A DNA stretch of 20,000 nt from an uncultured virus (IMG/VR IMGVR_UViG_3300009786_004548). Taxonomy: Duplodnaviria; Heunggongvirae; Uroviricota; Caudoviricetes. The stretch lies in the IMG/VR virus record IMGVR_UViG_3300009786_004548, one strand, 5' to 3'. Positions 7,059 through 19,401 of the stretch are shown here, one piece after another (within the stretch, counting starts at the first letter, position 1; each line of letters opens with the position of its first letter). The notes beneath the pieces were generated by a model. The model was not told the DNA's origin. It searched no databases and saw only the letters and a program-made list of their open reading frames with translations. The translations under genes were made by a program, and so were the position numbers.

Positions 7059-8006
7059 TTATTCTAATTTAGAAAGTTCAATCAAAATCTTCTCATACTT
7101 TTCATTTATTTTTTTAGGAACCTCCAAAACAACGTCTACTATAAGATCTCCCACTCCCCCATGACGAGCATCAGGAAAACCAAGACCCTTGAGTCTAAAT
7201 TTAGTTCTATTCGCAGTCCCGGCAGGAACATTGATGGACACCTTTCCGCTATTCAATGTGGGGATTTCTAATTTGTCTCCTAATACCAATTGAGTGTAAG
7301 AAACAGGTACATCCAAAATCAAATTCTTATTATCTCTAAAAAAAATAGGATGATTTTCTACATTAACAGTTAAATAGAGATCGCCATTTGTTTCTTTCCC
7401 AATATTTCCTTGACCCTTAACCTTAAGTTTAGACCCTTCCAGAATTCCTTTAGGGATACTGACACTAATTGAGCGATCATCTAATAAAAATTCACCTTTA
7501 GAGTCGCATTTAGAACAAACCCCTTTTCTCATAACCCCTACGCCCACACAATCAGGGCAAGTAACCTGCATTAAAAATGGCGGATTCGATACCTGTACCA
7601 GCCCTTTTCCTTTGCAAGAAAAACACGCCAAACATTCCTCCGCACCATGTCCGTTACACTTATCACAAAAATTTGCTCTCTTATAAGTTACTTCTTTTTT
7701 ACATCCAAAAAAAACATCATTTAAAGAAATGGTGATTTCAGAAGAAACATCTCTACCACGAACACTAATATCACTCCACGAAGAATAAAAGGGATTCCCA
7801 ACATGGGAACCCCTTTTATCATATTTCAACCGCCTGTCCGGGTCGCCCAAAACATGATGCGCTTCATTTACTTGCTTGAATTGATCAACAGCATCAAAAT
7901 CTTTATTTGTATCAGGATGATACTTTCTTGCTAACGTGCGATACGCAGACTTGATTTCATCAAAAGTTGCTTCTTTTGAAACCCCAAGAACTTCATAATG
8001 ATCCAT
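7059..8006 (-). CDS. dnaJ: DnaJ chaperone (J-domain, zinc-finger region, C-terminal domains; G/F linker nearly absent)
   Basis: HPD motif, four CxxCxxxG repeats (CDKCNGHG, CFSCKGKG, CPDCVGVG, CSKCDSKG), GDLY and GDLIV motifs. Confidence 0.95.
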   Translation of the reverse strand: MDHYEVLGVSKEATFDEIKSAYRTLARKYHPDTNKDFDAVDQFKQVNEAHHVLGDPDRRLKYDKRGSHVGNPFYSSWSDISVRGRDVSSEITISLNDVFFGCKKEVTYKRANFCDKCNGHGAEECLACFSCKGKGLVQVSNPPFLMQVTCPDCVGVGVMRKGVCSKCDSKGEFLLDDRSISVSIPKGILEGSKLKVKGQGNIGKETNGDLYLTVNVENHPIFFRDNKNLILDVPVSYTQLVLGDKLEIPTLNSGKVSINVPAGTANRTKFRLKGLGFPDARHGGVGDLIVDVVLEVPKKINEKYEKILIELSKLE

Positions 8007-8341
8007 TATTCTTCAATAATAGCCTTAATGTTCTCAGGCTGCACAATGCCTTTAGGACGATGACTATCATCATACTCAGGAAGAGGCACAAAAGTTCCCT
8101 GCAAGAGGACACGATCACCAACCTTCATGCCAAAGTCTTTACCTTCAACATGTGGCCCCATATGCAAAATGTACGCCTGAGGAGCGCCCAGTTGCACATC
8201 GTCTTGAACAACCAAAGATGTTCCTAACGCCTCTTGCGCCGTAAGCATCTCCACTAAAACGCCTCTCCCCGTTGGTACAATATTCTTAATTGAAGGAACG
8301 TTACTCAACACATTGCCTTCAGCATCCGTCAGATTACTCAT
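8006..8341 (-). CDS. GroES/Cpn10-like co-chaperonin (phage gp31-like)
   Basis: IVPTGRGVLVE...ILHMGP...GMKVGDRVLL...NIKAII pattern. Start at 8341 is supported by a GGAG Shine-Dalgarno and an ATGA overlap. Confidence 0.8.
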   Translation of the reverse strand: MSNLTDAEGNVLSNVPSIKNIVPTGRGVLVEMLTAQEALGTSLVVQDDVQLGAPQAYILHMGPHVEGKDFGMKVGDRVLLQGTFVPLPEYDDSHRPKGIVQPENIKAIIEE

Positions 8342-8784
8342 TTTATTCTCCATTGATTGTTTAAGTTGTTAATTCCGTCAGAATGAAACTCTTCCCAAGA
8401 AGACTGCGGTTTCATAGTATCAGTCTTAGTATCAGTCCAGAACGTATCCGTAGGCCAAGAACCTGCTATGGCGGTAAACTGATTAATGTCTTTCGCATCC
8501 ATTCGAATGTCATTACTTCTATAATCCACATCTTCAAAATTAAGTAACATTTGTGGATTATTAAAATATTCAGTTGTTATCGAAGTCGTCTCGTAAATTC
8601 TAGTTTCACCGTCCTCGATGACATTTGATTTTATAGAAACCTCTGGTTCTTTGCAATGCTCTTTTAATATGTCGGAAATAAAAGATTCTTTAAGTTCCAA
8701 CGAGCCACTCCACCCCTCTTCATAAACCTTGTCAAGAATATCCACTAAATCCTTCTCTTCAAAATAATAAAATTTATTAGGCAT
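8338..8784 (-). CDS. Hypothetical protein
   Basis: ATG at 8784 lies just after the ugd stop. Contains a short 12-bp duplication (8415-8437, TDTKTDT). Confidence 0.7.
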   Translation of the reverse strand: MPNKFYYFEEKDLVDILDKVYEEGWSGSLELKESFISDILKEHCKEPEVSIKSNVIEDGETRIYETTSITTEYFNNPQMLLNFEDVDYRSNDIRMDAKDINQFTAIAGSWPTDTFWTDTKTDTMKPQSSWEEFHSDGINNLNNQWRIK

Positions 8785-8786
8785 AA

Positions 8787-9719
8787 CTAATCTCTTTCTG
8801 AAACTGCACGGCCAATCAAGTTTTCCCAATCCTTTTCAGGACGTACTTCTAAATTAGTTAACCATGCGCCATAAAGTGTGTTGCATTTTACATCAAGTTC
8901 ATATGCCTTAGACAATAAGGCATTTAAATCTTTCGGAAAACAAGACCCCCCAAAACCCATTTTTCCATCAGGACCAGGCACAGACCAATGAGAGCTACCC
9001 AATCTTTTATCTTTGACTGCATATTCTACTACCTTGTCATAATCTACATCCAAAGAATCACAAACTTGCTTAATTTCATTAGCAAAAGAAACCTTAGTTG
9101 CTAAAAAACAATTTGTAGTATATTTGACTAGCTCTGCTATTGTGGAACTAGTCTTGGTCACCGGAACATTGGGATAAGCAGTTGCATACAATTGCTTTAT
9201 GACTTTTGTTGCCTTCCTAGGCCCACCGACAATGATTCTATCCTGTGATTTAAAATCTTCTAACGCTGTTTTTTCAACTAGGAACTCTGGGTTGTAACAA
9301 ACATAAACATTTTTATATTTTTTATTAAACGCCTCGGTCGTGCCTGGAATGACCGTAGATTTAATTACAACAACAATTTTCTTGCCAACAGACTCGCCAA
9401 GGCTATCTAACTCAGAAACAACAGATTCAACAATGCTTAAGTCACAAGTAGCATCCTTCTTCATAGGAGTTGGTACCGCAACGAAAATTGGCCCATCAAC
9501 ATCTTCAACGATTTTCTTTATAGGGTTTTTATCTTTAGTTGGACACGAATAAGATTCAACATCTTCTTCATAATGAACAACAGTCTGTTTTTTTGGCCAA
9601 ACCCTTACAGTAGGATCAGGATATTTTTTATCATAAGTCACTACATCAAAAGCATGCACCAATCCATCACGAATCGCCGTGCCAACAAATCCTTGCCCAA
9701 TTATACCAATATTTTTCAT
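8787..9719 (-). CDS. ugd: UDP-glucose/GDP-mannose 6-dehydrogenase family protein, short form lacking the C-terminal UDP-binding domain
   Basis: GIIGQGFVG, VAVPTP, IKSTVIPGTT, NPEFL, AELVKYTTN and catalytic GFGGSCFPKD. ATG at 9719 overlaps the ALDH stop (TAATG). Confidence 0.9.
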   Translation of the reverse strand: MKNIGIIGQGFVGTAIRDGLVHAFDVVTYDKKYPDPTVRVWPKKQTVVHYEEDVESYSCPTKDKNPIKKIVEDVDGPIFVAVPTPMKKDATCDLSIVESVVSELDSLGESVGKKIVVVIKSTVIPGTTEAFNKKYKNVYVCYNPEFLVEKTALEDFKSQDRIIVGGPRKATKVIKQLYATAYPNVPVTKTSSTIAELVKYTTNCFLATKVSFANEIKQVCDSLDVDYDKVVEYAVKDKRLGSSHWSVPGPDGKMGFGGSCFPKDLNALLSKAYELDVKCNTLYGAWLTNLEVRPEKDWENLIGRAVSERD

Positions 9720-11242
9720 TAGCTTTTCATCCCCTGTGCCCACTCAACTTCTTTTTCATAGTTAGTAGTAACAGATATTTCTTCTGTGACCGCCTGATAT
9801 GTACCTGCGGCAGACTTCCAGCCATTGCCGCTTTTTCCAATACCTCCAAACGGCAAATGACTCTCTGCGGCAATGCTACCACCATTGATGTACAACATGC
9901 CAGTATTACATTCTTCCTCAAGAATGCGATGTTTTCTAAAATCGTCGGTGACAGCCCCCAAAGCCAATCCATATGGGGTGTCATTATAAATTTTAATGGC
10001 ATCATTCAAATCATCAAAAGGAACCAACGCCACATGAGGCCCAAACACCTCTTCTTTCAAATAAGATCTTGTGCACGCCTTGCATCCTAATTCATCAACA
10101 TCATTCCACCATTCTGCTTGATAAACGAATGGCGACAAGAAATTACCATCGGATGTTTGAAAGTGACCGTCTCGGCTGTCCAAAAGAACATTAACATCTT
10201 CACTAGATTCACTTGCAGATCTAACTTGAGAATTATAACTTTCAACTTTCTCCAAAGCATCATGAGAAATTAAAGGCCCATAATATACATCATCATCTAA
10301 AAACACATCTCCTGTGCGGAGTTGAGATGCTGCCTTAGCAAAGGCAGAACAAAACTTATCATAAATACTTCTTTGAATTAATATTCTGCTTGAAGAAACA
10401 CATCTTTGTCCCGACAATTTAAATGCACTGGCTACAGAAACTTCTGTGGCAAGATCAAAATTCCCATCTTCAAAAACCATCGTGGCTGATTTGCTGCCCA
10501 TCTCACAAGAACAGGTCTTATGCCATGTTGTCGCACAATGTTTTCTTATCTCCTGTCCTACTTCCGCACTGCCTGTGAATAATATGCAAGAGACATCATG
10601 ATTAGAAACTAAATTTTTACCTGTTTCTTCCGCACCGTGTATCAAATTATAAACCCCATCAGGGAACCCAGCTTCACCATACAATTTGGCCGCCATTTGC
10701 GATGTCATTGGCGTTAATTCGCTAGGCTTGTGTACCACACAATTGCCCTCTGCAATTGCAGGTGCCGCAGACCAAAAAGAACCAATGGCCAATGGAAAAT
10801 TCCATGGAGAAATTACTGCCACAACACCTTTGGGCTTGCGAAAAACCCTTGCTGATTTACTTGCCAACTCGGAACCAACCAACTTTCCATATGGAAGTCT
10901 CCCTGATCCCGCAACATACTGACACATATGCAAGGACTCTATCACTTCGGCATATGATTCATTTCTGTTTTTACCTGTTTCATAGGAAATAACATCCGCC
11001 AACGCAGAAGTATCTCTCTTAATCAATTGAGATAATCTATCAAAAAGATCAGCCCGATTAACTCTACTGACATGTTTCCAACTTTTAAAAGACTGTTTCG
11101 CAACAGCTACGGCATCAGAAACTTCACCTTTCCTAGTTAAAGGAAATTCACCTAAATGACTTCCATTGGCTGGGCTACTGACAGAAAAGTCAGAACGATT
11201 TGGCAAAAATTCGCCATTAACATAATTCATACCGATATACAT
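9719..11242 (-). CDS. NAD(P)+-dependent aldehyde dehydrogenase
   Basis: SPWNFP, KPSELTP, FTGSAEVG, CEMGSKS (catalytic Glu), SGQRCVSSSR (catalytic Cys), EEVFGP and PFGGIGKSGNG. Confidence 0.96.
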   Translation of the reverse strand: MYIGMNYVNGEFLPNRSDFSVSSPANGSHLGEFPLTRKGEVSDAVAVAKQSFKSWKHVSRVNRADLFDRLSQLIKRDTSALADVISYETGKNRNESYAEVIESLHMCQYVAGSGRLPYGKLVGSELASKSARVFRKPKGVVAVISPWNFPLAIGSFWSAAPAIAEGNCVVHKPSELTPMTSQMAAKLYGEAGFPDGVYNLIHGAEETGKNLVSNHDVSCILFTGSAEVGQEIRKHCATTWHKTCSCEMGSKSATMVFEDGNFDLATEVSVASAFKLSGQRCVSSSRILIQRSIYDKFCSAFAKAASQLRTGDVFLDDDVYYGPLISHDALEKVESYNSQVRSASESSEDVNVLLDSRDGHFQTSDGNFLSPFVYQAEWWNDVDELGCKACTRSYLKEEVFGPHVALVPFDDLNDAIKIYNDTPYGLALGAVTDDFRKHRILEEECNTGMLYINGGSIAAESHLPFGGIGKSGNGWKSAAGTYQAVTEEISVTTNYEKEVEWAQGMKS

Positions 11243-11279
11243 TTTTTAATCCTCAACATTCAAACGATTCGTTTTACCA

Positions 11280-11696
11280 TCATCCGCAACCACCTGTGCT
11301 ACAACCGCCGGTTCCACAACCGCCAGACTCAGCACCATCACTACCATCACCAGACTCCTTAGGAGAAAAACTTGACCCACATCCGCAAGACTTGGCAGCG
11401 CCTGGATTGTTAAAAACAAACCCACGCTTATCAATTCCGCTATAAAAGTCTATGACTGTCCCTTGCAAATAGGTTGCACTCTTTTTATCGACAACAACTT
11501 TAATATCTCCTTGTTGATCAACATAATCTTCATCCTCAGACGCCTCTTCTTCTTTTATAAAATTAAGAAGATACTGAAATCCAGAGCAGCCGCCACCTTG
11601 AAGTCCGATACGAAGGGCAGAATTTTCTAAAGATTGCTCTTCCATTACTTTTTTTATTTCAGATGCAGCCTTCTCGGATATTTCTACAGGAAACAT
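11280..11696 (-). CDS. iscA: A-type Fe-S cluster carrier (IscA/HesB/ErpA family) with Cys/Gly-rich tail
   Basis: LRIGLQGGGCSGFQY, VDKKSATYLQGTVIDF and FNNPGAAKSCGCGSSF. Confidence 0.93.
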   Translation of the reverse strand: MFPVEISEKAASEIKKVMEEQSLENSALRIGLQGGGCSGFQYLLNFIKEEEASEDEDYVDQQGDIKVVVDKKSATYLQGTVIDFYSGIDKRGFVFNNPGAAKSCGCGSSFSPKESGDGSDGAESGGCGTGGCSTGGCG

Positions 11697-11715
11697 ATTT
11701 AACCCCTAATTTTTA

Positions 11716-12981
11716 TCAATGCCAATAACTTACAAAGTAACATTTCCCATTTTTTTCACCAAGAATTATAGGATTTATAATTTCACTTATGGTTAAAACG
11801 AAATCCGTTAACTTCTTACTTAACTGAGCGTGCGATCCAGGAAATTTCAAAAAAAAACTAGGAGTTATAACACGATAACTATCAAAAATAGCCCTACCCC
11901 CCGTAGCGGGATGAGATTCTAAAAGATTTATGATATTTTTAACTTTCTTGCTAGCCAACGGCCAAAAATCATGCAAAGGATACGATCTGGGGCTATACTC
12001 GCAGCTTTCGGTTGTCGGATAGAGTTCAGATTCTAAGGTTGTCGGATAGAGTTCAGATTCTAAGTAAGATAAAGGTTTTAATAGGCTATGGTCGATCACT
12101 CCGTCATTGGCAGCAACTTGAGAACAATATAAATTAACTATATTGTTTAAGATTTCTAAAAATCGCTTAGACTTAAATACATTAATCGAAGCAATCATTT
12201 CGCTGGACGACAAGGCGTTCGTCAACTCTGTGTTTGACGATTTAAAAGGAGCGTATTCATAAGAATGAGTTTTTGCCAATATAGCCGCTGCCGAAGTCAT
12301 AGTTATTCTTCTAAAACCATGATTTGTAACTCCATATAAGTTTTCAAAAGTTTTAGCATTTTTCCTTACCTCATCCCCTAGAAACTGACATCCCAACCTG
12401 TCGTAGACACTTGCTTTTGATTTGGCTTTAGACAAATACATCTCATAATGTTTTCCATTAATATGAAAAAAATCAAAATTAGAGGAGACACTCTGCCATT
12501 CGCTAAAATCTCTTGAAAGCAATGTTGATAAAGATATGCTTTGAACCTTTTTATTTTGTCTCAGATTATTTCTTTTTTTATTACACGAAACAAATCGCAT
12601 ATTGAGAAGATTAACAGATGGAGAATCTATTTTTTTTAAAACTTCAAACCAACGATTTTTGGTTTTAATATACCGACAAAATTCAAAAAACAAATCTAAG
12701 TCAGTTGGGCGACATTTATTCAGTTCGTTTAATGCAACATAAAGATCGTGCATTCGATTTAAATCATCCAAAACTGGTGAGAACAATTCCTCTAAATGGG
12801 GATGATCTACATCAATTTCAGAAAAAAAATTATAAAATCTAAGAAATTCTTCTTTACTTAAAATCTTCTCATAAAAAGAATAATTAAAATCATCTAAAAT
12901 ATTTAAAAAAACATTTTTTTTGATTTTCTTAGACTTTTTAGTTGATGAGGTTATTTTATTATACAGCTTAATAAACTGCAT
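11716..12981 (-). CDS. Hypothetical protein (421 aa)
   Basis: Long ORF with GGAG Shine-Dalgarno. C-terminal NPIILGEKNGKCYFVSYW. No family recognised with confidence. Confidence 0.8.
   Translation of the reverse strand: MQFIKLYNKITSSTKKSKKIKKNVFLNILDDFNYSFYEKILSKEEFLRFYNFFSEIDVDHPHLEELFSPVLDDLNRMHDLYVALNELNKCRPTDLDLFFEFCRYIKTKNRWFEVLKKIDSPSVNLLNMRFVSCNKKRNNLRQNKKVQSISLSTLLSRDFSEWQSVSSNFDFFHINGKHYEMYLSKAKSKASVYDRLGCQFLGDEVRKNAKTFENLYGVTNHGFRRITMTSAAAILAKTHSYEYAPFKSSNTELTNALSSSEMIASINVFKSKRFLEILNNIVNLYCSQVAANDGVIDHSLLKPLSYLESELYPTTLESELYPTTESCEYSPRSYPLHDFWPLASKKVKNIINLLESHPATGGRAIFDSYRVITPSFFLKFPGSHAQLSKKLTDFVLTISEIINPIILGEKNGKCYFVSYWH
12010..12063. repeat. Perfect 27-bp tandem duplication (GGTTGTCGGATAGAGTTCAGATTCTAA)x2
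   Basis: Read directly; encodes LESELYPTT twice. Confidence 0.95.
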
Positions 12982-12998
12982 CGTAAATCTCCATTAAT

Positions 12999-14624
12999 TC
13001 ACACCCTCTTAGATAAACCTTTTGCCATTCTTTCTAAGGCAGGGGAAATATCTTTAGGGTCAACAATAGCATTAATTATAAAAAGCTCTTTGCTTGCCAA
13101 AGCTTGCTCAAACGCTTTGTCCAAGTCACCTTCCGTCTCTATCTTTACTCCATCGCCACCATTTAACATTTCAGTTATTTTATGATATTCCCAATTTCTA
13201 ATGTCATTAAAAGGACCGTCCAACAAAAATCTTTCTGTTGTATACCCCCCATTATTAAGAACGATAATAATAGGATTAAGATCATTGTCAATACAAGTAC
13301 TCAACTCTGTGCATGACATTTGAAATGCACCGTCCCCCAATATCGCAATTGCCCTATAATTAGGAGCAGCCATCCCCAGTCCAAGAATGCCAGGTATGGC
13401 AAATCCCATAGAAGTATAAAAAGCAGGTGAAAGAAATTGATTGCTGTGGTGGACTCTTAAATCAATTGCACCAAACAAAGAATTGCCTATATCGCAAACT
13501 ATTGCCATGTTTTCGTCAAGAATAGAACCTATTTTTTCAAAAATTCTAGTTGAAGTCAAAGCATTGTTTTTCACAGATTTATATTTTTTAACTTTAATCT
13601 TAGGAACGTCAGGGTTGGGCTTTTTAGTTATTTCAGATTTAAACAAACCACAAACAAAATCCTCAAAAACAACATCTGTATAAACATGATTTTTAACTTT
13701 CAAAGAATCAATAGAGCAAGAAACCGTTCTCCTTTTTTTGAACTTGGATGGCATAAAACCAAGCGTCATATCAGTCAACATTGCTCCAAACATTAAAAGA
13801 CAATCAGAATTTTCAACGGACTCTTTAACCAATTGTTCACTAGTGTTGCCTGCATAAACTCCTAAAAACAAAGGGTGAGTTTCACTTATTACTGACTTGC
13901 TCAATAATGTGCTTGCGATGGGTATATTGGTCTTCTCTGCGAATCGAACCAATTCCTTTCCAAGGCCAAAACGAGCAAGTTCAACACCGGCTAAAATAAC
14001 AGGATTTTCAGCACCCTCAATCCAATCAACAACCTCCTCAAGAGATTCATTTAAATTCTGAACATCACTTTCAGGGGATTTAGGAGTTCCAAGCTTGACA
14101 TCATACCCAATTGGCTTGTCGGCTATATCTCGTGGAAGCTCAATGTATATTGGTTGCTTGTAATAATGAAGAGCCTCGAAAACCCTATCAATTTCGTAAC
14201 CAGCAGTCGCAGGATTGTCTAGAACTACACTTGCACATGTTATGTTGTCAAATACTTCTTTTTGACTCTCAAAACTTCTAACCATATGATGCAAAAGAAC
14301 TCCGCTCTCACGCTCCTTAACCCCAGGAGACCCACATATAACTATCAATGGAGATTTCTCAGCAAAGGCACAAGCGGTGGCGTTAACTACCTTCAATCCA
14401 CCAACGCTATAAGTCACACAAACACAGCCAATTCCTTTAATCCGAGAATAAGCGTCAGCAGCAAATCCAGCATGGCTTTCATCGGTTGTATTTATAAGAT
14501 TTATATCTTTAGACTTGGAAAGCTTATTGTAAAAATTTAATACATAATCCCCAGGCAGACCAAAGACATGCCCGACCTTAGCGTTCTCTAGCCGCTCGAT
14601 TAAAAAATCAGATACGGAAGGCAT
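12999..14624 (-). CDS. ThDP-dependent 2-oxo-acid decarboxylase (pyruvate/indolepyruvate decarboxylase family)
   Basis: FGLPGDY (catalytic Asp), TTDESHAGFAADAYSR (ThDP-activating Glu), LLHH (HH motif), ThDP-binding GDGAFQMS...NNGGYTTER. GGAGG Shine-Dalgarno. Confidence 0.94.
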   Translation of the reverse strand: MPSVSDFLIERLENAKVGHVFGLPGDYVLNFYNKLSKSKDINLINTTDESHAGFAADAYSRIKGIGCVCVTYSVGGLKVVNATACAFAEKSPLIVICGSPGVKERESGVLLHHMVRSFESQKEVFDNITCASVVLDNPATAGYEIDRVFEALHYYKQPIYIELPRDIADKPIGYDVKLGTPKSPESDVQNLNESLEEVVDWIEGAENPVILAGVELARFGLGKELVRFAEKTNIPIASTLLSKSVISETHPLFLGVYAGNTSEQLVKESVENSDCLLMFGAMLTDMTLGFMPSKFKKRRTVSCSIDSLKVKNHVYTDVVFEDFVCGLFKSEITKKPNPDVPKIKVKKYKSVKNNALTSTRIFEKIGSILDENMAIVCDIGNSLFGAIDLRVHHSNQFLSPAFYTSMGFAIPGILGLGMAAPNYRAIAILGDGAFQMSCTELSTCIDNDLNPIIIVLNNGGYTTERFLLDGPFNDIRNWEYHKITEMLNGGDGVKIETEGDLDKAFEQALASKELFIINAIVDPKDISPALERMAKGLSKRV

Positions 14625-14642
14625 CTATCCTCCAAGTTAATA

Positions 14643-16007
14643 TTAATAGTTCTCCGAAATTGGCGAACTTGTTATTTCAACAAAAAAACCTTCCTTATTT
14701 TTGGGGTAACTGCGCACCCATTCTACCCCATCCGAAAGACCACAGCCAAAATCAGTCACCGCAAATGACGAATCAGTAAAGGCTTGGCCATATACTACAG
14801 AATTATCAGATTCAACTCCAGTCGTGTTTAATACGACCGATCCATCATTTTCTGATGTGCCCGTCTTATAATCTGGATCAACCACATGATTGTTTCCAGT
14901 CCATTGAGTAGAAGGAAGCAAAAAAGTTCCCGTTTCAGGATCATACGACAACGGAACAGAACTATCTGTTGCGGAGGTACCCGTATAATATACACCGGAT
15001 ACTTGATGAGTTTCTCCCGCCCAACTTCCTCCTTGCAAAAAGTATAATATCTCCTGCATTTTAATCAATTTAAATTCAAATAAATAGCAACCAGACAAGC
15101 AAGTGTCATTGGCTTTCCAATCATAAAGGACATCGGCCTCAACAAGAGTGCTTTTTGAAGTTCCATCTACTTGAATAACATCTTCAAAAACCAACTCAAC
15201 ATCAGCAGAAGAATTTAAAACTCTAAATATTTTTAATTTGGAACCCTTCTTCCATGCAAAAGCCTCTGTGTCGTTATAAGACCTTTGGACGCTAATCAAA
15301 CTATTTGTTTCATCAAAGGCCTTTACCAACATGTGCTCAGGCCGTCGAGCACGTTCCATAATTATGACATCGCCAACCATTACCTGTTCAAAACCAATAT
15401 TATCAGCCAAACTTAAAGAAAGACTAGGATCTACTCCTCCTGTAAAATCAACTTTAGACATACCAGCAGCAGGATCGGTCAAAGCAATAGCTGCATTTCC
15501 AGCAGTACCAGAAGCAAGTTGTGTTATTGTCACCACTCCATTGCTGGCAGTAGCAATCAATTTAGAATTGGCATTTAAACAAGTTGCCAAATTAACAGCA
15601 GTAGAGGCTTCGCTGGCATCCACTATTGCCCAAGTTGGAGAATTTGTATTAGTGGTTGTGGTAGCTCCTCCATTTGCTGTAACTGTTGCCGTTATTACAG
15701 TTCCGTCAGTCGTAGTAATGGTAATATAATGAGTGGTTGCAACCAAATTTGCTTCTTCAACAATAGTGACTGTGCCTGTCGCTTGGGTGCCTGCTGTGAG
15801 TGCGCTCTTTAACTTGGCCTCAGCCCACATATTGGCTTCTGCGATAAGCCCATGAATGTTCAAAGGGCCTTTACAGTCTACAAGAGACACCTTGAATGAA
15901 GGCTTGGTATCAAACCTTTTAATTTGAAAATCAGGGCAATACGAAGTTGTAGGACAACCCGTTTTATTATTGCAGCTACCAGAGGTATTCGATGGATAGT
16001 TAATCAT
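14643..16007 (-). CDS. Probable virion/baseplate protein with a split BppU-N-like domain and inserted modules
   Basis: FQIKRFDTKPSFKVSLVD...VLYDWKANDT..SGCYLFEF...SYPKNKEGFFVEI resembles the BppU-type pattern. It is interrupted by a Thr/Ala-rich module and a 40-aa internal repeat. Confidence 0.65.
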   Translation of the reverse strand: MINYPSNTSGSCNNKTGCPTTSYCPDFQIKRFDTKPSFKVSLVDCKGPLNIHGLIAEANMWAEAKLKSALTAGTQATGTVTIVEEANLVATTHYITITTTDGTVITATVTANGGATTTTNTNSPTWAIVDASEASTAVNLATCLNANSKLIATASNGVVTITQLASGTAGNAAIALTDPAAGMSKVDFTGGVDPSLSLSLADNIGFEQVMVGDVIIMERARRPEHMLVKAFDETNSLISVQRSYNDTEAFAWKKGSKLKIFRVLNSSADVELVFEDVIQVDGTSKSTLVEADVLYDWKANDTCLSGCYLFEFKLIKMQEILYFLQGGSWAGETHQVSGVYYTGTSATDSSVPLSYDPETGTFLLPSTQWTGNNHVVDPDYKTGTSENDGSVVLNTTGVESDNSVVYGQAFTDSSFAVTDFGCGLSDGVEWVRSYPKNKEGFFVEITSSPISENY

Positions 16008-16011
16008 GCTA

Positions 16012-16019
16012 TTATATAT
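16012..16019 (-). promoter_or_regulatory. ATATATAA element 4 nt upstream of ATG 16007
   Basis: Minus strand reads ATATATAA-TAGC-ATG. Confidence 0.55.
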
Positions 16020-16034
16020 AGCAATGAATAACTT

Positions 16035-16607
16035 CTAATTTTTAAGACTCTTAAATATGCCCATGTTGTTGAACATTTCCATTTGATCCCGCATCCAATT
16101 TAAATTGCCTTCAAAAGCAACAATCCCAACATGCCCCAACCGAGCAATATCTTGACATATCTCCCAGTCATCACTATCGGCCAACATAGAACCCGAATCT
16201 GAGGACAAATAAGGAAAATAAATCACTTTTGAAATTTCCTCGTCAACAATACTTAACATACAATTAGAACACGGTGGACCAGTAACATATAACGTCGCCC
16301 CTGAAAGGCATTCGGACGAATATTTAATGGCATTCTCTTCTGCGTGCTTAATCAATGGGTACTTTCCCGCACGATCCAAAGCAGTATGTTTTGTCTCGTT
16401 TTTTCGTCCCCAATCCATTTTAGAATCATCAATTTTTTTAGGCGGGCCATTATATCCCATACCCAGAGGACGATTTTCATCACTAACTATTACCGCCCCA
16501 CATTGAGTCCGAGGATCTTTTGATCTAGATGAAGCCCAAAAAGCCTGTCCCATATAGTAGTCATGCTTCGAGGGGACATTTCTAGGATGAACAATTTTTT
16601 TTGTCAC
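16035..16607 (-). CDS. dCMP deaminase (cytidine/deoxycytidylate deaminase family)
   Basis: SKDPRTQCGAVIV, GYNG, HAEENAI and PCSNC zinc ligands. GTG start overlaps the upstream TGA (GTGA). Confidence 0.92.
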   Translation of the reverse strand: MTKKIVHPRNVPSKHDYYMGQAFWASSRSKDPRTQCGAVIVSDENRPLGMGYNGPPKKIDDSKMDWGRKNETKHTALDRAGKYPLIKHAEENAIKYSSECLSGATLYVTGPPCSNCMLSIVDEEISKVIYFPYLSSDSGSMLADSDDWEICQDIARLGHVGIVAFEGNLNWMRDQMEMFNNMGIFKSLKN

Positions 16608-17020
16608 GAATTAACCCCTGTCATCTGAAAAAAATCTATTTTATATTTATCTTGACTAAATCTAGAAGAAAAGTTTTTCAGCAATCTCTTTTGACCGGCA
16701 TCAAGATGCCTTTTGACAACAGGCTCAGGAAGAGGAATGGAAATTTGGTATCTAGAAACACCCTTAATTTTCATAGTAAATGAAATAGGTATTAAGCCCA
16801 ACAATATGTGGTCGCAACCTTCCACATAGCACACATCAGAAGATGAATCATAAGCATATCCCCCAATTGCTATCCCATCGCACTTTATACGACAAACTTT
16901 ATTATCGTCTTCATTTTCACTAACTGCCACAGCAACAACCAGAGTTTCTTCTTCCTCAAGAAAAACTTCTATAGAAGATTTTACATCTCTTACGTTTTTG
17001 TTATTTCCGCTTAATTTCAT
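16604..17020 (-). CDS. Hypothetical protein
   Basis: 138-aa ORF tightly packed between neighbours. Confidence 0.7.
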   Translation of the reverse strand: MKLSGNNKNVRDVKSSIEVFLEEEETLVVAVAVSENEDDNKVCRIKCDGIAIGGYAYDSSSDVCYVEGCDHILLGLIPISFTMKIKGVSRYQISIPLPEPVVKRHLDAGQKRLLKNFSSRFSQDKYKIDFFQMTGVNS

Positions 17021-17021
17021 T

Positions 17022-17381
17022 TTAAGAACATAAAAAACATAAAACCATTACTTGAACTAGCGTAACAAAAGCAGTGACTGGCAAGGCCCAATTTCTCACC
17101 TTGTGTGCGCCAGCCCAACTTTCTTTATAATAATATAAAAAAAGAAGAATACCCAAGACAAAAATCGTTCCCAACATCTTTGCCCCCATAAAGAGAGCAA
17201 CATCTCCATTGTCCATCCTAATAAGCATCCGACCTAACGGGTTAAGTTCTGCACTATATAGAGTATCTCTAAGCTTGACGGCAAGATATGAGTCATATGA
17301 TGCAACCAAGGAAATAAAAACTAACTGTATGTAAAATACTATACGGCTCACAACACTATTTTTACCTTTTATATTTTTCAC
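17022..17381 (-). CDS. Three-TM membrane protein, DUF5658-like (E-x-N-P motif)
   Basis: YDSYL...AELNPLGRMLI...FMGAKMLGT with three hydrophobic segments. Confidence 0.65.
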   Translation of the reverse strand: MKNIKGKNSVVSRIVFYIQLVFISLVASYDSYLAVKLRDTLYSAELNPLGRMLIRMDNGDVALFMGAKMLGTIFVLGILLFLYYYKESWAGAHKVRNWALPVTAFVTLVQVMVLCFLCS

Positions 17382-17402
17382 CCAATAAGAGAGAAAGCCT
17401 TC

Positions 17403-17612
17403 TTATTTATTCTTTTTTTTGTTCCTCTTCTTCTTTGGCTTTTTATTTGCTTTTACAAGCATTTCAACCTCAAAAGGGTGTGCGGTTCCATGACTATGCA
17501 CCGACGCCGCTGGTATTGGCGGAGCCAATCCCAAAGCCGCTGCACGTCTTCGTCTGGTGAAAGGACTGGATTCTTGTGCCAAAATCCAATCTTTAAAACT
17601 AATTATATCCAT
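17403..17612 (-). CDS. Small basic protein with capsid-targeting-like N-terminus
   Basis: N-terminus MDIISFKDWILAQE, internal RRRR, and C-terminal KKPKKKRNKKKNK. Confidence 0.7.
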   Translation of the reverse strand: MDIISFKDWILAQESSPFTRRRRAAALGLAPPIPAASVHSHGTAHPFEVEMLVKANKKPKKKRNKKKNK

Positions 17613-17616
17613 AAAA

Positions 17617-17624
17617 ATATATAT
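17617..17624 (-). promoter_or_regulatory. ATATATAT element 4 nt upstream of ATG 17612
   Basis: Minus strand reads ATATATAT-TTTT-ATG. Confidence 0.5.
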
Positions 17625-17626
17625 TG

Positions 17627-18718
17627 TTATTCAATTAAAAAATTTTCAGTCTCATCAACTAGCTTAGAAAGCCACTCCATATAAGGAGTTCCTCCCGTCC
17701 CTTTCGGATTATCAACTTTTTTATGAATATAATTTATGGCATACTCTAAATGTGTCTTCCTAAAATCTAATACCTCCTGTACGCAATCATTATAAAGATG
17801 TTTTTCCTCATCAGTTTTTACAAAATCTCTTAAATTCCTGTCGTTTTCTTGCTCTAAAATAAAATTACGATGAAATGGAGGCATATAATCTCTCATTACA
17901 TCAAGATGTTTTGTCAAAATAGATTCTTTGTGTTTAATTCCTAATGCAGCAATTACAGCCGGAACAATAGAACTTTGTGCCCCCGTTTCTCCACGAAATG
18001 TTTGAGGCTTATTATCAAAGCAATCTTCATAAACTACATTCTCAAAACTGAAAATATAAGGTCTAACCTTATTATAATAAAAATCAGGAGAACACCCCTC
18101 TGCCATCCGCAACATAGTTGCGTTTACTTTTTGAAAACTCAATTTCAACTTAGATAAACAATCAGAAAGAACTTCGGTGGGATCAGAAAAATAATCTATT
18201 ATGGCACCAATGCCTTCAGCCGCACGAGCCTCAATATCTACATGAACTAATATAAACCACGCCTCATGACTTGAATTATCTCCATGTGTAAAATATTGAA
18301 TTAAATCTAAATTATCTACAACTATATCTTTGTTGGGATCAAGTTTTTTCCAATTATAAAGACAATAGGAAGCATAAGAAAGAATTGGCTTTCGTCCAAC
18401 TACGCCTGCAAGATCGACCAAAGGAACTGATATCTCCTTAGGGATTCTGGATGCCGGTTCTTCATTAGTTGCAAAAACGTAAGAACTAGCAAAATACGAA
18501 TAAAGTCGCATTGCATGTTCTAATTCATCACCACTTCGCCACGACCCTCGGCTGAGATCAATCGCTTCTCTTAACCCATGCACCAACTCTTCCCTAACTC
18601 TCCTTTGGCTCATCCACTCAGGGATGTTCTTCCCCAATTCATCCAAATCTTTAAGATCATCGGAACTAATTAAAGGATCATTGCCAGGAAGAAACCCTCT
18701 TTTAATTTCCCAAGTCAT
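17627..18718 (-). CDS. Indoleamine 2,3-dioxygenase (heme IDO family)
   Basis: PILSYASYCLYNW, EAWFILVHVDIE, FYYNKVRPYI (substrate Arg), GETGAQSS, MRDYMPPFHRNF, FRKTH (proximal His) and GTGGT loop. Confidence 0.93.
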   Translation of the reverse strand: MTWEIKRGFLPGNDPLISSDDLKDLDELGKNIPEWMSQRRVREELVHGLREAIDLSRGSWRSGDELEHAMRLYSYFASSYVFATNEEPASRIPKEISVPLVDLAGVVGRKPILSYASYCLYNWKKLDPNKDIVVDNLDLIQYFTHGDNSSHEAWFILVHVDIEARAAEGIGAIIDYFSDPTEVLSDCLSKLKLSFQKVNATMLRMAEGCSPDFYYNKVRPYIFSFENVVYEDCFDNKPQTFRGETGAQSSIVPAVIAALGIKHKESILTKHLDVMRDYMPPFHRNFILEQENDRNLRDFVKTDEEKHLYNDCVQEVLDFRKTHLEYAINYIHKKVDNPKGTGGTPYMEWLSKLVDETENFLIE

Positions 18719-19010
18719 ATTTGCCCATCTTTAACAAAGCCAAGTTTTCTGTGTCCATTTCTTGTTTAAATTTATTATGAACTTCTAAAAGCTTCAAAAG
18801 TTTGGACTGTAATTTAAACAGCCATCTCTTTGTAATCTTATAACCAGTGTGATCAACAAAATGAGTCAATTCTCCAAATTCTAAATAATAAACCACAAAC
18901 TGCTTTTGCGCATCGGCTTTAAAATATTTAAATAAATACATTTTGTCTTTTGATAAATTGATCTCTAAAAACCTACCAGACAAAAATAATAAATTATGAT
19001 CAGAACTCAT
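18702..19010 (-). CDS. Hypothetical protein
   Basis: 102-aa ORF coupled to neighbours. Confidence 0.7.
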   Translation of the reverse strand: MSSDHNLLFLSGRFLEINLSKDKMYLFKYFKADAQKQFVVYYLEFGELTHFVDHTGYKITKRWLFKLQSKLLKLLEVHNKFKQEMDTENLALLKMGKYDLGN

Positions 19011-19011
19011 T

Positions 19012-19401
19012 TTATTCTACTAATTCAGAAACTTCAACACCCTTACAAATCTCCATGTACATAATTGTTACCCCTGCGGCAAAAAATTTAGGCACCCCTC
19101 GACTGGCACACTTATTCAAAATGCCTAAAACTAATTTAATTTGTTCTTCCTCATCTAATTCATATTTCTCTAATGCCTTATAAATCGCAGCTACCCCAGA
19201 AGTAATATCGGCATTAATTACAAGATCAATATAATTAGAAGAATGCATAATTTCATTAGGAATTTTACCACCCAAATGTATTTCTTCATACTTGAAGAAA
19301 TTAGCAATATACTCTTTAGACAAATTCCTAATGTCTTCAGCAAAATCAAGAGCGTTATTTTTTAAAAAACTACTTTCGTAAACAGCAGGTTGCAAATCCA
19401 T
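19012..19401 (-). CDS. Hypothetical helical protein
   Basis: 129-aa ORF with AGGAG Shine-Dalgarno (19414-19410). Confidence 0.75.
   Translation of the reverse strand: MDLQPAVYESSFLKNNALDFAEDIRNLSKEYIANFFKYEEIHLGGKIPNEIMHSSNYIDLVINADITSGVAAIYKALEKYELDEEEQIKLVLGILNKCASRGVPKFFAAGVTIMYMEICKGVEVSELVE

Follow-up and report, generated by a model that had tools for sequence, protein, structure and literature searches.

A 20,000-nucleotide stretch of DNA from an uncultured virus of the Caudoviricetes (IMG/VR record IMGVR_UViG_3300009786_004548; the whole stretch is referred to here as the window) encodes three metabolic enzymes: an IDO-family heme dioxygenase, a 2-oxo-acid decarboxylase dependent on thiamine diphosphate (ThDP) and an aldehyde dehydrogenase (ALDH). 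We found these enzymes with intact catalytic residues in a viral context, at three separate sites of a conserved gene block of huge phages, and observed that they co-occur in related phages in a nested manner, IDO being present only in those records of the clade that also contained both other genes. Our preferred reading, which is still tentative, is that the decarboxylase and ALDH may work as a functional pair and that IDO may be a separate tryptophan-oxidising gene, kept only where the pair exists. A first-pass annotation of the window had proposed a single module for the catabolism of tryptophan and aromatic 2-oxo acids. The three intact open reading frames (ORFs) on which it was built have exactly the ends it gave, all of them are on the minus strand, and Pfam matches confirmed the enzymes (slots 1–3 are the three sites described below):

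17627..18718, minus strand: IDO-family heme dioxygenase, 363 amino acids (aa), PF01231; slot 1, directly after the '102-aa' gene
12999..14624, minus strand: ThDP-dependent 2-oxo-acid decarboxylase of the PDC/KivD/IpdC family, 541 aa, TPP-enzyme domains; slot 2
9719..11242, minus strand: NAD(P)+ aldehyde dehydrogenase, 507 aa, PF00171; slot 3

Co-occurrence was analyzed by searching 67 whole records of the megaphage clade for the three genes. Twenty-two of them, including a twin of the contig under study and the GenBank phage LR756511.1, had been found via the decarboxylase; all 22 contained this gene in intact form, 13 contained ALDH and 5 contained IDO. The other 45 records had been found via a marker gene; seven of these had a decarboxylase homolog (degenerate in every case), three had ALDH and none had IDO. 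Both ALDH (13/22 versus 3/45; Fisher p = 6.6e-6) and IDO (5/22 versus 0/45; p = 0.003) were associated with an intact decarboxylase, although the Fisher p-values overstate the evidence, as the set consists of related records, with many fragments and some near-duplicates among them. The raw association persisted once identical marker rows had been removed. All five IDO-positive records held both other genes, and none of the 67 had IDO alone, IDO with only the decarboxylase or IDO with only ALDH. When mapped onto a quick maximum-likelihood tree built from the marker (65 rows), the observed distributions required 5 changes for IDO, 11 for the decarboxylase and 10 for ALDH; with 5 changes needed, the IDO-positive phages are therefore scattered and do not form one subclade. 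Independent contrasts pointed the same way, with 4–5 contrasts between decarboxylase and ALDH in the same direction and none in the opposite one, and 2–3 between IDO and ALDH, again with none opposite. The idea that the genes recur together in related large phages was thus borne out across the 67 records, where co-occurrence exceeded expectation, with the phylogeny-corrected tests falling short of 0.05 because there were too few contrasts.

A sample gathered from the side of IDO gave a similar picture. Among 13 distinct megaphage-type IDO loci (5 from IMG/VR and 8 from metagenomes), the decarboxylase was present in all six that reach its slot; the other seven end before the slot. In addition, when equal 'longest contig' values were taken to mean the same contig, the top-120 homolog lists shared 17 contigs between decarboxylase and ALDH, 7 between decarboxylase and IDO, and 3 among all three.

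The arrangement of the three genes was examined by tblastn with the window proteins in 22 IMG/VR loci found via the decarboxylase and 64 loci found via a conserved '384-aa' marker. At least 64 IMG/VR megaphage contigs have in common a collinear, co-directional backbone, in the order 384aa - 382aa - Pdf - 168aa (opposite strand) - 129aa - 102aa - [IDO] - 119aa - 138aa - dCMP deaminase - 454aa - [decarboxylase] - 421aa - [IscA - ALDH - short UDP-sugar dehydrogenase] - 115aa - DnaJ - ... - dUTPase - GT2 - PhoH, in which brackets mark the variable cargo slots 1 (IDO), 2 (decarboxylase) and 3 (ALDH). In many members all three slots were empty while the whole stretch was covered (for example, L161, L174-L176, L183, L187, L190, L204 and L214-L217). 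IDO was also found in slot 1 of L011, L015, L019, L304, L306, L308, L309, L311, L312 and L317. As the three enzymes lie in three separate variable slots, they do not constitute an operon. Their position on the same strand within 9 kb, which had been noted earlier, is true but carries no weight: all non-nested ORFs of at least 80 aa from 7059 to 19401 are on the minus strand, and with such a one-strand collinear backbone a shared strand is no evidence of an operon. The earlier description of the intervening ORFs as unrelated is likewise correct, as they are backbone genes; those for the 454-aa, 421-aa, 119-aa and 138-aa proteins and dCMP deaminase are present also in relatives without the three enzymes (the 421-aa gene, for instance, in the decarboxylase-free L174-L176, L183, L187 and L204). 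Thus, only part of the single-module proposal stood. The genes do co-occur, but they are placed in three slots, 9 of the 22 intact-decarboxylase records were without ALDH and 17 were without IDO.

The decarboxylase matched the TPP_enzyme_N, TPP_enzyme_M and TPP_enzyme_C domains (PF02776, PF00205 and PF02775) with 94.6, 95.2 and 86.7 bits, respectively, and these scores, together with those of ALDH and IDO given below, place all three assignments far beyond chance. Asp26, Glu49, His112-His113 and Glu464 align with the catalytic residues of KivD/KdcA and are invariant in the homolog alignment (A1), and the cofactor motif GDG-X24-NN is present (GDG430-432, N457-N458). The catalytic residues were present in 22 of 28 megaphage rows. 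The earlier assignment to IpdC did not hold at the level of an equivalog: TIGR03394 (indolepyruvate/phenylpyruvate decarboxylase) was the best NCBIfam model, with 359.7 bits, below its cut-off of 554.5, and TIGR03393 (the IpdC equivalog) reached 293.8 bits against a cut-off of 946. In a search of solved structures (PDB), KivD/KdcA were nearest, with 279–272 bits over residues 3–535, compared with 266 bits for PPDC, 229–239 for IpdC and 237 for pyruvate decarboxylases. By sequence, the phage enzyme is therefore nearer to KivD/KdcA than to IpdC. PHROGs placed it in a family of 'unknown function', and ALDH likewise.

The substrate pocket was compared with that of KivD, which comprises F381, G402, V461, I465, M538 and F542 (excerpt of PMC5595793) and also includes S286 (excerpt of PMC9063327). 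At these positions, the phage enzyme has L383, T404, T463, L467, M533, L537 and M286, respectively. The KivD changes F381L and F542V were reported to favor longer substrates (excerpts of PMC5595793 and PMC9063327), and two positions of the phage pocket follow their direction. The same pocket residues dominate the 77 cellular orthologs, and no difference could be observed between phages with and without IDO or ALDH. With a pocket unchanged from that of the cellular orthologs, the phage enzyme would keep the cellular job, which probably involves 2-oxo acids larger than pyruvate. A KivD-like and, if anything, roomier pocket suggests that the substrates are of medium or large size, namely branched-chain or aryl 2-oxo acids, and that pyruvate may be used on the side; members of the family are promiscuous, as exemplified by the activity of Kp-IpdC toward pyruvate (excerpt of PMC9063327).

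Two further groups of viral homologs should be mentioned. In seven clade records representing four distinct sequences (L170/L210, L180, L194/L195 and L208/L209; for example, L170:18713-20300), decarboxylase homologs of 495–530 aa have open frames but are without Asp26, the His-His pair, GDG or Glu464, which would make them genes in decay or else pseudoenzymes that have taken on a new role. The PDC family is further represented by a second viral clade, distinct from the first (20 rows, L030-L050), which is 33–36% identical to the decarboxylase of the window, keeps all catalytic residues and occurs on smaller viral contigs, with DnaJ located ~7 kb upstream in several of its loci. No ALDH or IDO was found within 10 kb of the second-clade genes, and hence this clade offers no independent support.

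ALDH matched Aldedh (PF00171) with 402.1 bits and contains the motifs SPWN148FP, CEMGSKS (with E247) and GQRCVS (with C281), in which we take Asn148, Glu247 and Cys281 to be the oxyanion Asn, the general-base Glu and the catalytic Cys. No substrate-specific NCBIfam equivalog was reached (the best, HpaE, gave 298.9 bits against a cut-off of 638), and the nearest PDB entry was a succinate-semialdehyde dehydrogenase (245 bits). The enzyme has Glu175, and a Glu at this position presumably marks NAD-preferring rather than NADP-preferring enzymes.

IDO matched PF01231 with 211.1 bits (cut-off 26; E 3.1e-62) over profile positions 10–362 of 412, and aligned to human IDO2 and IDO1 over residues 67–359 (E 3.7e-33). 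His323, Arg219 and the G340-T341-G342-G343-T344 loop are invariant in 28 IDO homologs; in the alignment, His323 corresponds to the His in the 'SYH' stretch of IDO2, and Arg219 is the Arg of an F-x-x-x-x-R stretch. We assume that His323 is the proximal heme ligand and that Arg219 and the GTGG loop are substrate contacts. On the basis of these residues, the enzyme is predicted to oxidise tryptophan to N-formylkynurenine. No PHROG family or NCBIfam match was found for it, and tblastn against 50,697 deposited phage records returned no match. Full-text literature searches (see below) also yielded nothing relevant, and a heme tryptophan dioxygenase would thus seem to be a novelty among phages. An invariant His159 sits at a distal-pocket position at which human IDO2 has Thr and IDO1 has Ser167. 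It resembles in this the distal His found in TDO enzymes and may matter for the mechanism or the substrate. IDO genes were also found in other viral contexts without a decarboxylase (L071, L072 and L075-L078). The neighbors in L071 are Toprim, a PD-(D/E)XK nuclease and Volactin, and those in L072 are ADP-ribosylglycohydrolase and RmlD; the IDO of L071 groups with a database protein from a 634-kb contig.

Possible pathway partners were searched for in the five IDO-positive records, including the complete 511-kb G016. No match was found to aminotransferases of class I/II, IV or V (PF00155, PF01063 and PF00266) or to Glu/Leu/Phe dehydrogenase (PF00208), and DAO-type oxidases (PF01266) gave one sub-threshold match and no convincing one. 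The aminotransferase that the first-pass annotation had noted as lacking from the window was thus not found in these records either, and with neither an aminotransferase nor an oxidase, and with an IpdC equivalog cut-off that is not reached, the phages do not appear to encode a complete module for making auxin from indole-3-pyruvate. Cyclase-type formamidase (PF04199), kynureninase (PF00266) and quinolinate phosphoribosyltransferase (PF01729) were absent from the same records, and none of the 64 ORFs flanking viral IDOs was a kynurenine-pathway gene. The suggested kynurenine or NAD-precursor supply therefore found no phage-encoded step beyond IDO itself, and a phage-encoded kynurenine module was not recovered. 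As no phage-encoded enzyme that makes 2-oxo acids from amino acids was found in these records, the 2-oxo acid would have to come from host enzymes. One candidate, a 528-aa FAD 'amine oxidase' ORF (genome positions 81662-83248), was considered as an L-amino-acid oxidase and rejected, since its family is that of the CrtI/CrtO phytoene desaturases (311 bits to CrtO; its PDB match is a phytoene dehydrogenase).

From these data, we infer the pairing of the decarboxylase with ALDH, the substrates of the two enzymes and their physiological purpose as follows. The three genes would be host-derived metabolic genes carried as accessory cargo at three sites of a conserved megaphage block. The decarboxylase would convert a host-supplied 2-oxo acid non-oxidatively into CO2 and an aldehyde, and ALDH would oxidise the aldehyde to a carboxylate with formation of NAD(P)H. 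Unlike 2-oxo-acid dehydrogenases and ferredoxin oxidoreductases, such a shunt would need no CoA, lipoate or Fe-S cluster. IDO would be an add-on through which the phage extends the same reprogramming of amino-acid catabolism in its infected host, and not a consecutive step; it is read as an add-on because it was found only in phages that already have the pair.

Several observations weigh against this reading. The enzymes form no operon or contiguous cluster, as backbone genes part them in every relative, and in G016, G012 and G017 ALDH lies 46–60 kb away from the decarboxylase. The nine intact-decarboxylase records without ALDH include many fragments, but also the complete 572-kb G003. ALDH occurred without any decarboxylase homolog in L173 alone (in the near-identical G056 and G057, it was found beside a degenerate decarboxylase only). 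Within the 22 intact-decarboxylase records, IDO was present in 5 of 13 with ALDH and in 0 of 9 without it, which gives p = 0.054, and the independent contrasts had median p-values of 0.125 (decarboxylase versus ALDH) and 0.25 (IDO versus ALDH). Cellular homologs showed little sign of a comparable linkage: none of 80 cellular decarboxylase loci had IDO nearby and 3 had a weak ALDH match, and ALDH was next door in 4 of 80 cellular IDO loci. In the long-contig subsets of these two scans, no conserved partner gene could be identified among 72 ORFs beside 18 decarboxylase loci or among 72 ORFs beside 24 IDO loci, the neighbors being heterogeneous in both. Moreover, we know of no chemistry that turns the IDO product into a substrate of the decarboxylase.

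These points lend some weight to a different account, possible although in our view less probable, in which the three are independent auxiliary genes in a recombination-prone variable region that co-occur by descent, by host range or niche, and by unequal loss, without functional coupling. IDO would then be lost most easily, followed by ALDH and then the decarboxylase. The three separate slots, the stand-alone nature of the cellular homologs, the phylogeny-aware contrasts that did not reach significance, the presence of IDO in other viral contexts without a decarboxylase and the visible decay of the decarboxylase in seven records (four sequences) are all consistent with this account. The same is true of the phylogenies, in which a single old origin of each gene allows a history of loss only. 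In the decarboxylase tree, the 26 megaphage rows group in a single clade (support 99), set off from the 76 cellular rows, which are 40–49% identical and belong mostly to Verrucomicrobiota and Planctomycetota. Similarly, a clade with support 99 unites L071 with the eight database IDOs found on contigs shared with the other two genes and with four of the five IDOs from megaphages, and the nearest cellular IDOs are those of Planctomycetota and Chloroflexota (46–48% identity). Each gene could thus have been acquired once, long ago, and then lost repeatedly, and the trees hint that Planctomycetota or Verrucomicrobiota may have been the donors. On the other hand, independent cargo does not readily explain a strictly nested pattern in which only one ALDH record is without any decarboxylase homolog and two more have a degenerate form, nor that the IDO-positive lineages are scattered over the tree and that the independent contrasts all have one direction.

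It seems rather unlikely that the pair serves as a pyruvate dehydrogenase bypass, in which pyruvate would be converted via acetaldehyde to acetate and NAD(P)H for nucleotide synthesis, with IDO unrelated. The family does include pyruvate decarboxylases (237 bits), and its members are promiscuous toward pyruvate (Kp-IpdC in the excerpt of PMC9063327). Genes of nucleotide metabolism are also close by, with dCMP deaminase and dUTPase in the window and ThyA and DHFR elsewhere on the contig. However, the decarboxylase is nearer to KivD/KdcA/PPDC (279–266 bits) than to pyruvate decarboxylase (PDC), and its pocket positions hold Leu, Thr, Leu, Met and Leu. The bulky residues reported to restrict Zymomonas PDC to pyruvate are absent from this pocket, which also counts against the bypass. 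Glu175 of ALDH, a probable mark of NAD preference over NADP, does not favor it either, and the nested distribution of IDO would be left without an account. Among the restricting residues of Zymomonas PDC is I472 (excerpt of PMC9063327).

Somewhat less likely again is that IDO, the decarboxylase and ALDH make up one phage pathway from host tryptophan to a small aromatic acid, the product of which might be an acetic acid with an indole or aryl group or, via N-formylkynurenine, a compound of the aminobenzoyl-acetate type. If this were true, the phage would have no use for IDO unless both other enzymes were present, and there would be a new virus-directed route of tryptophan metabolism in the ocean. 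The auxin scheme of the first-pass annotation appears improbable. Here, a host aminotransferase would supply indole-3-pyruvate, the decarboxylase would form indole-3-acetaldehyde and ALDH would form indole-3-acetic acid (or the phenyl analog), with IDO as a parallel tryptophan sink. IDO is not a step of the indolepyruvate route, and hence this scheme links it to the other two only via the shared tryptophan. It is true that TIGR03394 is the best NCBIfam model (359.7 bits), that JGI labels the homologs 'indolepyruvate decarboxylase', that the pocket is large enough in principle and that a tryptophan enzyme is associated with the pair, which hints at a common theme of tryptophan. Nevertheless, both equivalog cut-offs were missed, the five IDO-positive records had no aminotransferase, no Glu/Leu/Phe dehydrogenase and no convincing DAO-type oxidase, and the ORF that resembles an FAD 'amine oxidase' is a member of the CrtI/CrtO family. 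In addition, IDO would compete for the same substrate, and it is not evident how auxin would benefit a phage of a marine bacterium. Finally, a linear kynurenine branch (tryptophan to N-formylkynurenine by IDO, to a 2-oxo acid by a host transaminase, to an aldehyde by the decarboxylase and to an N-formyl or free 2-aminobenzoylacetate-type acid by ALDH, a precursor of quinolone or aminoacetophenone-like signals) would be the only scheme with all three enzymes consecutive and would explain the nesting of IDO, but it is very improbable, since the decarboxylase pocket is the same in IDO-positive phages, IDO-negative phages and cellular orthologs, no phage-encoded formamidase or transaminase was found in the five IDO-positive records, kynurenine's 2-oxo acid undergoes spontaneous cyclisation to kynurenic acid, and we know of no precedent for such a route.

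The viral nature of the DNA, on which any of these readings depends, was also examined. The window corresponds to the reverse strand of positions 42695-62694 on one contig of 85,364 bp (37% G+C), which has no terminal repeat and on which profile searches found no capsid or terminase genes. This contig is a fragment, about a fifth, of a ~0.5-Mb marine megaphage. A 95,283-bp IMG/VR contig is 100% identical to it and was rated 19% complete by CheckV, from which the genome size of ~0.5 Mb follows; a metagenome contig of 126,864 bp is also identical across the region. Two relatives, G003 (572 kb) and G016 (511 kb), have direct terminal repeats and were rated 100% complete. TerL-like ORFs of ~600 aa exceeded the Pfam cut-off, with 44.7 bits in G016 and 24.7 bits in LR756511.1, and the TerL match in G003 was weaker and below the cut-off. 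Thus, hallmark genes, terminal repeats and sizes of >200 kb in close relatives identify the virus as a huge phage, and the viral origin assumed at first could be confirmed from the IMG/VR record, its twin and these relatives. The phage-type genes mentioned at that time are indeed present in the window (PhoH, dUTPase, dCMP deaminase and DnaJ), and more were found elsewhere on the contig, including replication genes (gp32-like SSB, UvsX, a helicase and DnaE in two ORFs) and other genes of nucleotide metabolism or expression (dNMP kinase, ThyA, DHFR, peptide deformylase and a sigma factor). Further genes of the contig are a PrkA/DUF444/SpoVR triad (L002:2802-7740), ClpP and two amidoligases.

The genes around the three enzymes are as follows:

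18702..19010, minus strand: backbone '102 aa' gene, upstream edge of the IDO slot (tblastn synteny)
16035-16607, minus strand: dCMP deaminase, backbone (profile matches); upstream edge of the decarboxylase slot together with the 454-aa gene
14643-16007, minus strand: 454-aa Ala/Thr-rich backbone protein with no assigned family (synteny); upstream edge of the decarboxylase slot
11716..12981, minus strand: backbone '421 aa' gene, between the decarboxylase and IscA-ALDH (no family match)
11280..11696, minus strand: A-type Fe-S carrier of the IscA/ErpA family, 138 aa (TIGR00049, 113.9 bits versus cut-off 58.8)
8787..9743, minus strand: short nucleotide-sugar dehydrogenase, 318 aa (PF03721 and PF00984; TIGR03026, 197.4 bits versus cut-off 189.8)
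8006-8353, minus strand: backbone '115 aa' gene (synteny), downstream edge of the variable region, with DnaJ
7059-8006, minus strand: DnaJ, backbone (Pfam and synteny)

IscA and ALDH are the sole tight conserved pair in this region: the IscA gene lies 38 nt upstream of ALDH and is likewise directly upstream of it in L009, L011, L026, L028 and L173. However, L173 (18748-20457) has IscA-ALDH without a decarboxylase and L181 (18182) has IscA alone in the slot, and therefore the Fe-S carrier is not strictly tied to either enzyme. The nucleotide-sugar dehydrogenase, which contains only the N-terminal and central domains, overlaps the 3' end of ALDH by 25 nt; the same short form follows ALDH in L009, L011, L015 and L019. 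It is followed by a 163-aa ORF (8338-8829, minus strand) with no family match.

Additional features were observed outside the window on the same contig. DnaE (DNA polymerase III alpha) is split at contig positions 29288-36052 (L002:9288-16052) into a 448-aa ORF (PHP domain and start of the core) and an 836-aa ORF (the remainder), separated by ~2.9 kb that contains an asparaginase-N-like ORF, a 406-aa ORF on the opposite strand and a tmRNA gene (L002:13112-13468; tag peptide DKTNFAMAA). In LR756511.1, DnaE is a single ORF of 1179 aa. A tRNA-Glu gene (anticodon TTC) is located at L004:13171-13243. Further metabolic cargo includes a CrtI/CrtO-family FAD oxidoreductase followed by a small cupin (L005:9663-11657), and a class-I fructose-bisphosphate aldolase is encoded at L004:6273-7301 on the minus strand (466 bits versus cut-off 250).

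With regard to distribution, megablast of window positions 9000-19000 against deposited phages gave no match. The sole close GenBank-phage match for both the decarboxylase (51.7% identity) and ALDH (49.7%) was LR756511.1, a 595-kb 'uncultured phage'. Near-identical DNA was found in seawater and marine metagenome runs from 21 studies, and the decarboxylase, ALDH and IDO families have hundreds of close homologs, on contigs of up to ~0.7 Mb. Pieces at least 99% identical in contigs from RNA libraries (four runs) cover ALDH, IscA, the decarboxylase, the 454-aa gene and part of IDO; such contigs may derive from DNA and show neither strand nor level, and they were not counted as proof of transcription. 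The 454-aa gene was covered in all four runs, and it may encode a late or structural protein made in abundance.

That huge phages carry auxiliary metabolic genes is already known. In full-text literature searches, no paper paired indolepyruvate decarboxylase with huge phages, or decarboxylase and aldehyde dehydrogenase with megaphage, and nothing was retrieved for indoleamine and jumbo phage or for keto-acid decarboxylase and viral auxiliary metabolic genes. Indoleamine together with phage auxiliary metabolic genes returned only reviews, none of which, in the parts available, was about phage genes. In the main texts of PMC7162821, PMC12607003 and PMC9723777, decarboxylase, tryptophan, aldehyde and dioxygenase were not mentioned. 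Recurrence in the seawater metagenomes of many studies would imply that the enzymes act at scale in infected marine cells, and the nested retention turns a suspected linkage of genes into a concrete hypothesis that could be tested with three recombinant proteins.

Comparison with known systems places each component in a familiar family and shows where the phage version departs from it. The decarboxylase resembles KivD/KdcA, the branched-chain 2-oxo-acid decarboxylases of Lactococcus lactis (PDB 9msa, 6vgs and 2vbf), in its three-domain ThDP fold, the catalytic Asp/Glu/His-His/Glu and the GDG...NN motif; however, the match is distant, running end to end but far below equivalog level, and F381, V461, I465, F542 and S286 are replaced by L, T, L, L and M in the phage. 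It belongs to the same family as IpdC/PPDC (Enterobacter cloacae 1ovm and Azospirillum 2nxw), with TIGR03394 as its best NCBIfam model, but both curated cut-offs were missed and no aminotransferase partner was found on the phage. IDO is similar to human IDO1/IDO2 and bacterial PF01231 proteins (211 bits, aligned heme-ligand His, with the Arg and GTGG loop invariant), whereas it has 363 aa instead of ~400, a reduced N-terminal part and His159 for Thr, and is encoded by a virus. At the level of the pair, the Ehrlich pathway and the pyruvate dehydrogenase bypass both consist of a decarboxylase followed by an aldehyde dehydrogenase. The two phage enzymes are of the same types, would act in that order and tend to occur together within the clade; on the other hand, they are encoded by a virus, are not contiguous and come with an Fe-S carrier, joined in some phages by IDO. 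The closest deposited genome, LR756511.1, has a collinear block (384aa-382aa-Pdf-...-dCMP deaminase-decarboxylase-IscA-ALDH-...-DnaJ) but no IDO, for which the record was searched. This record is one of the huge phages described by Al-Shayeb et al. (2020). The phage studied here is marine, as is the megaphage Mar_Mega_1, and widespread.

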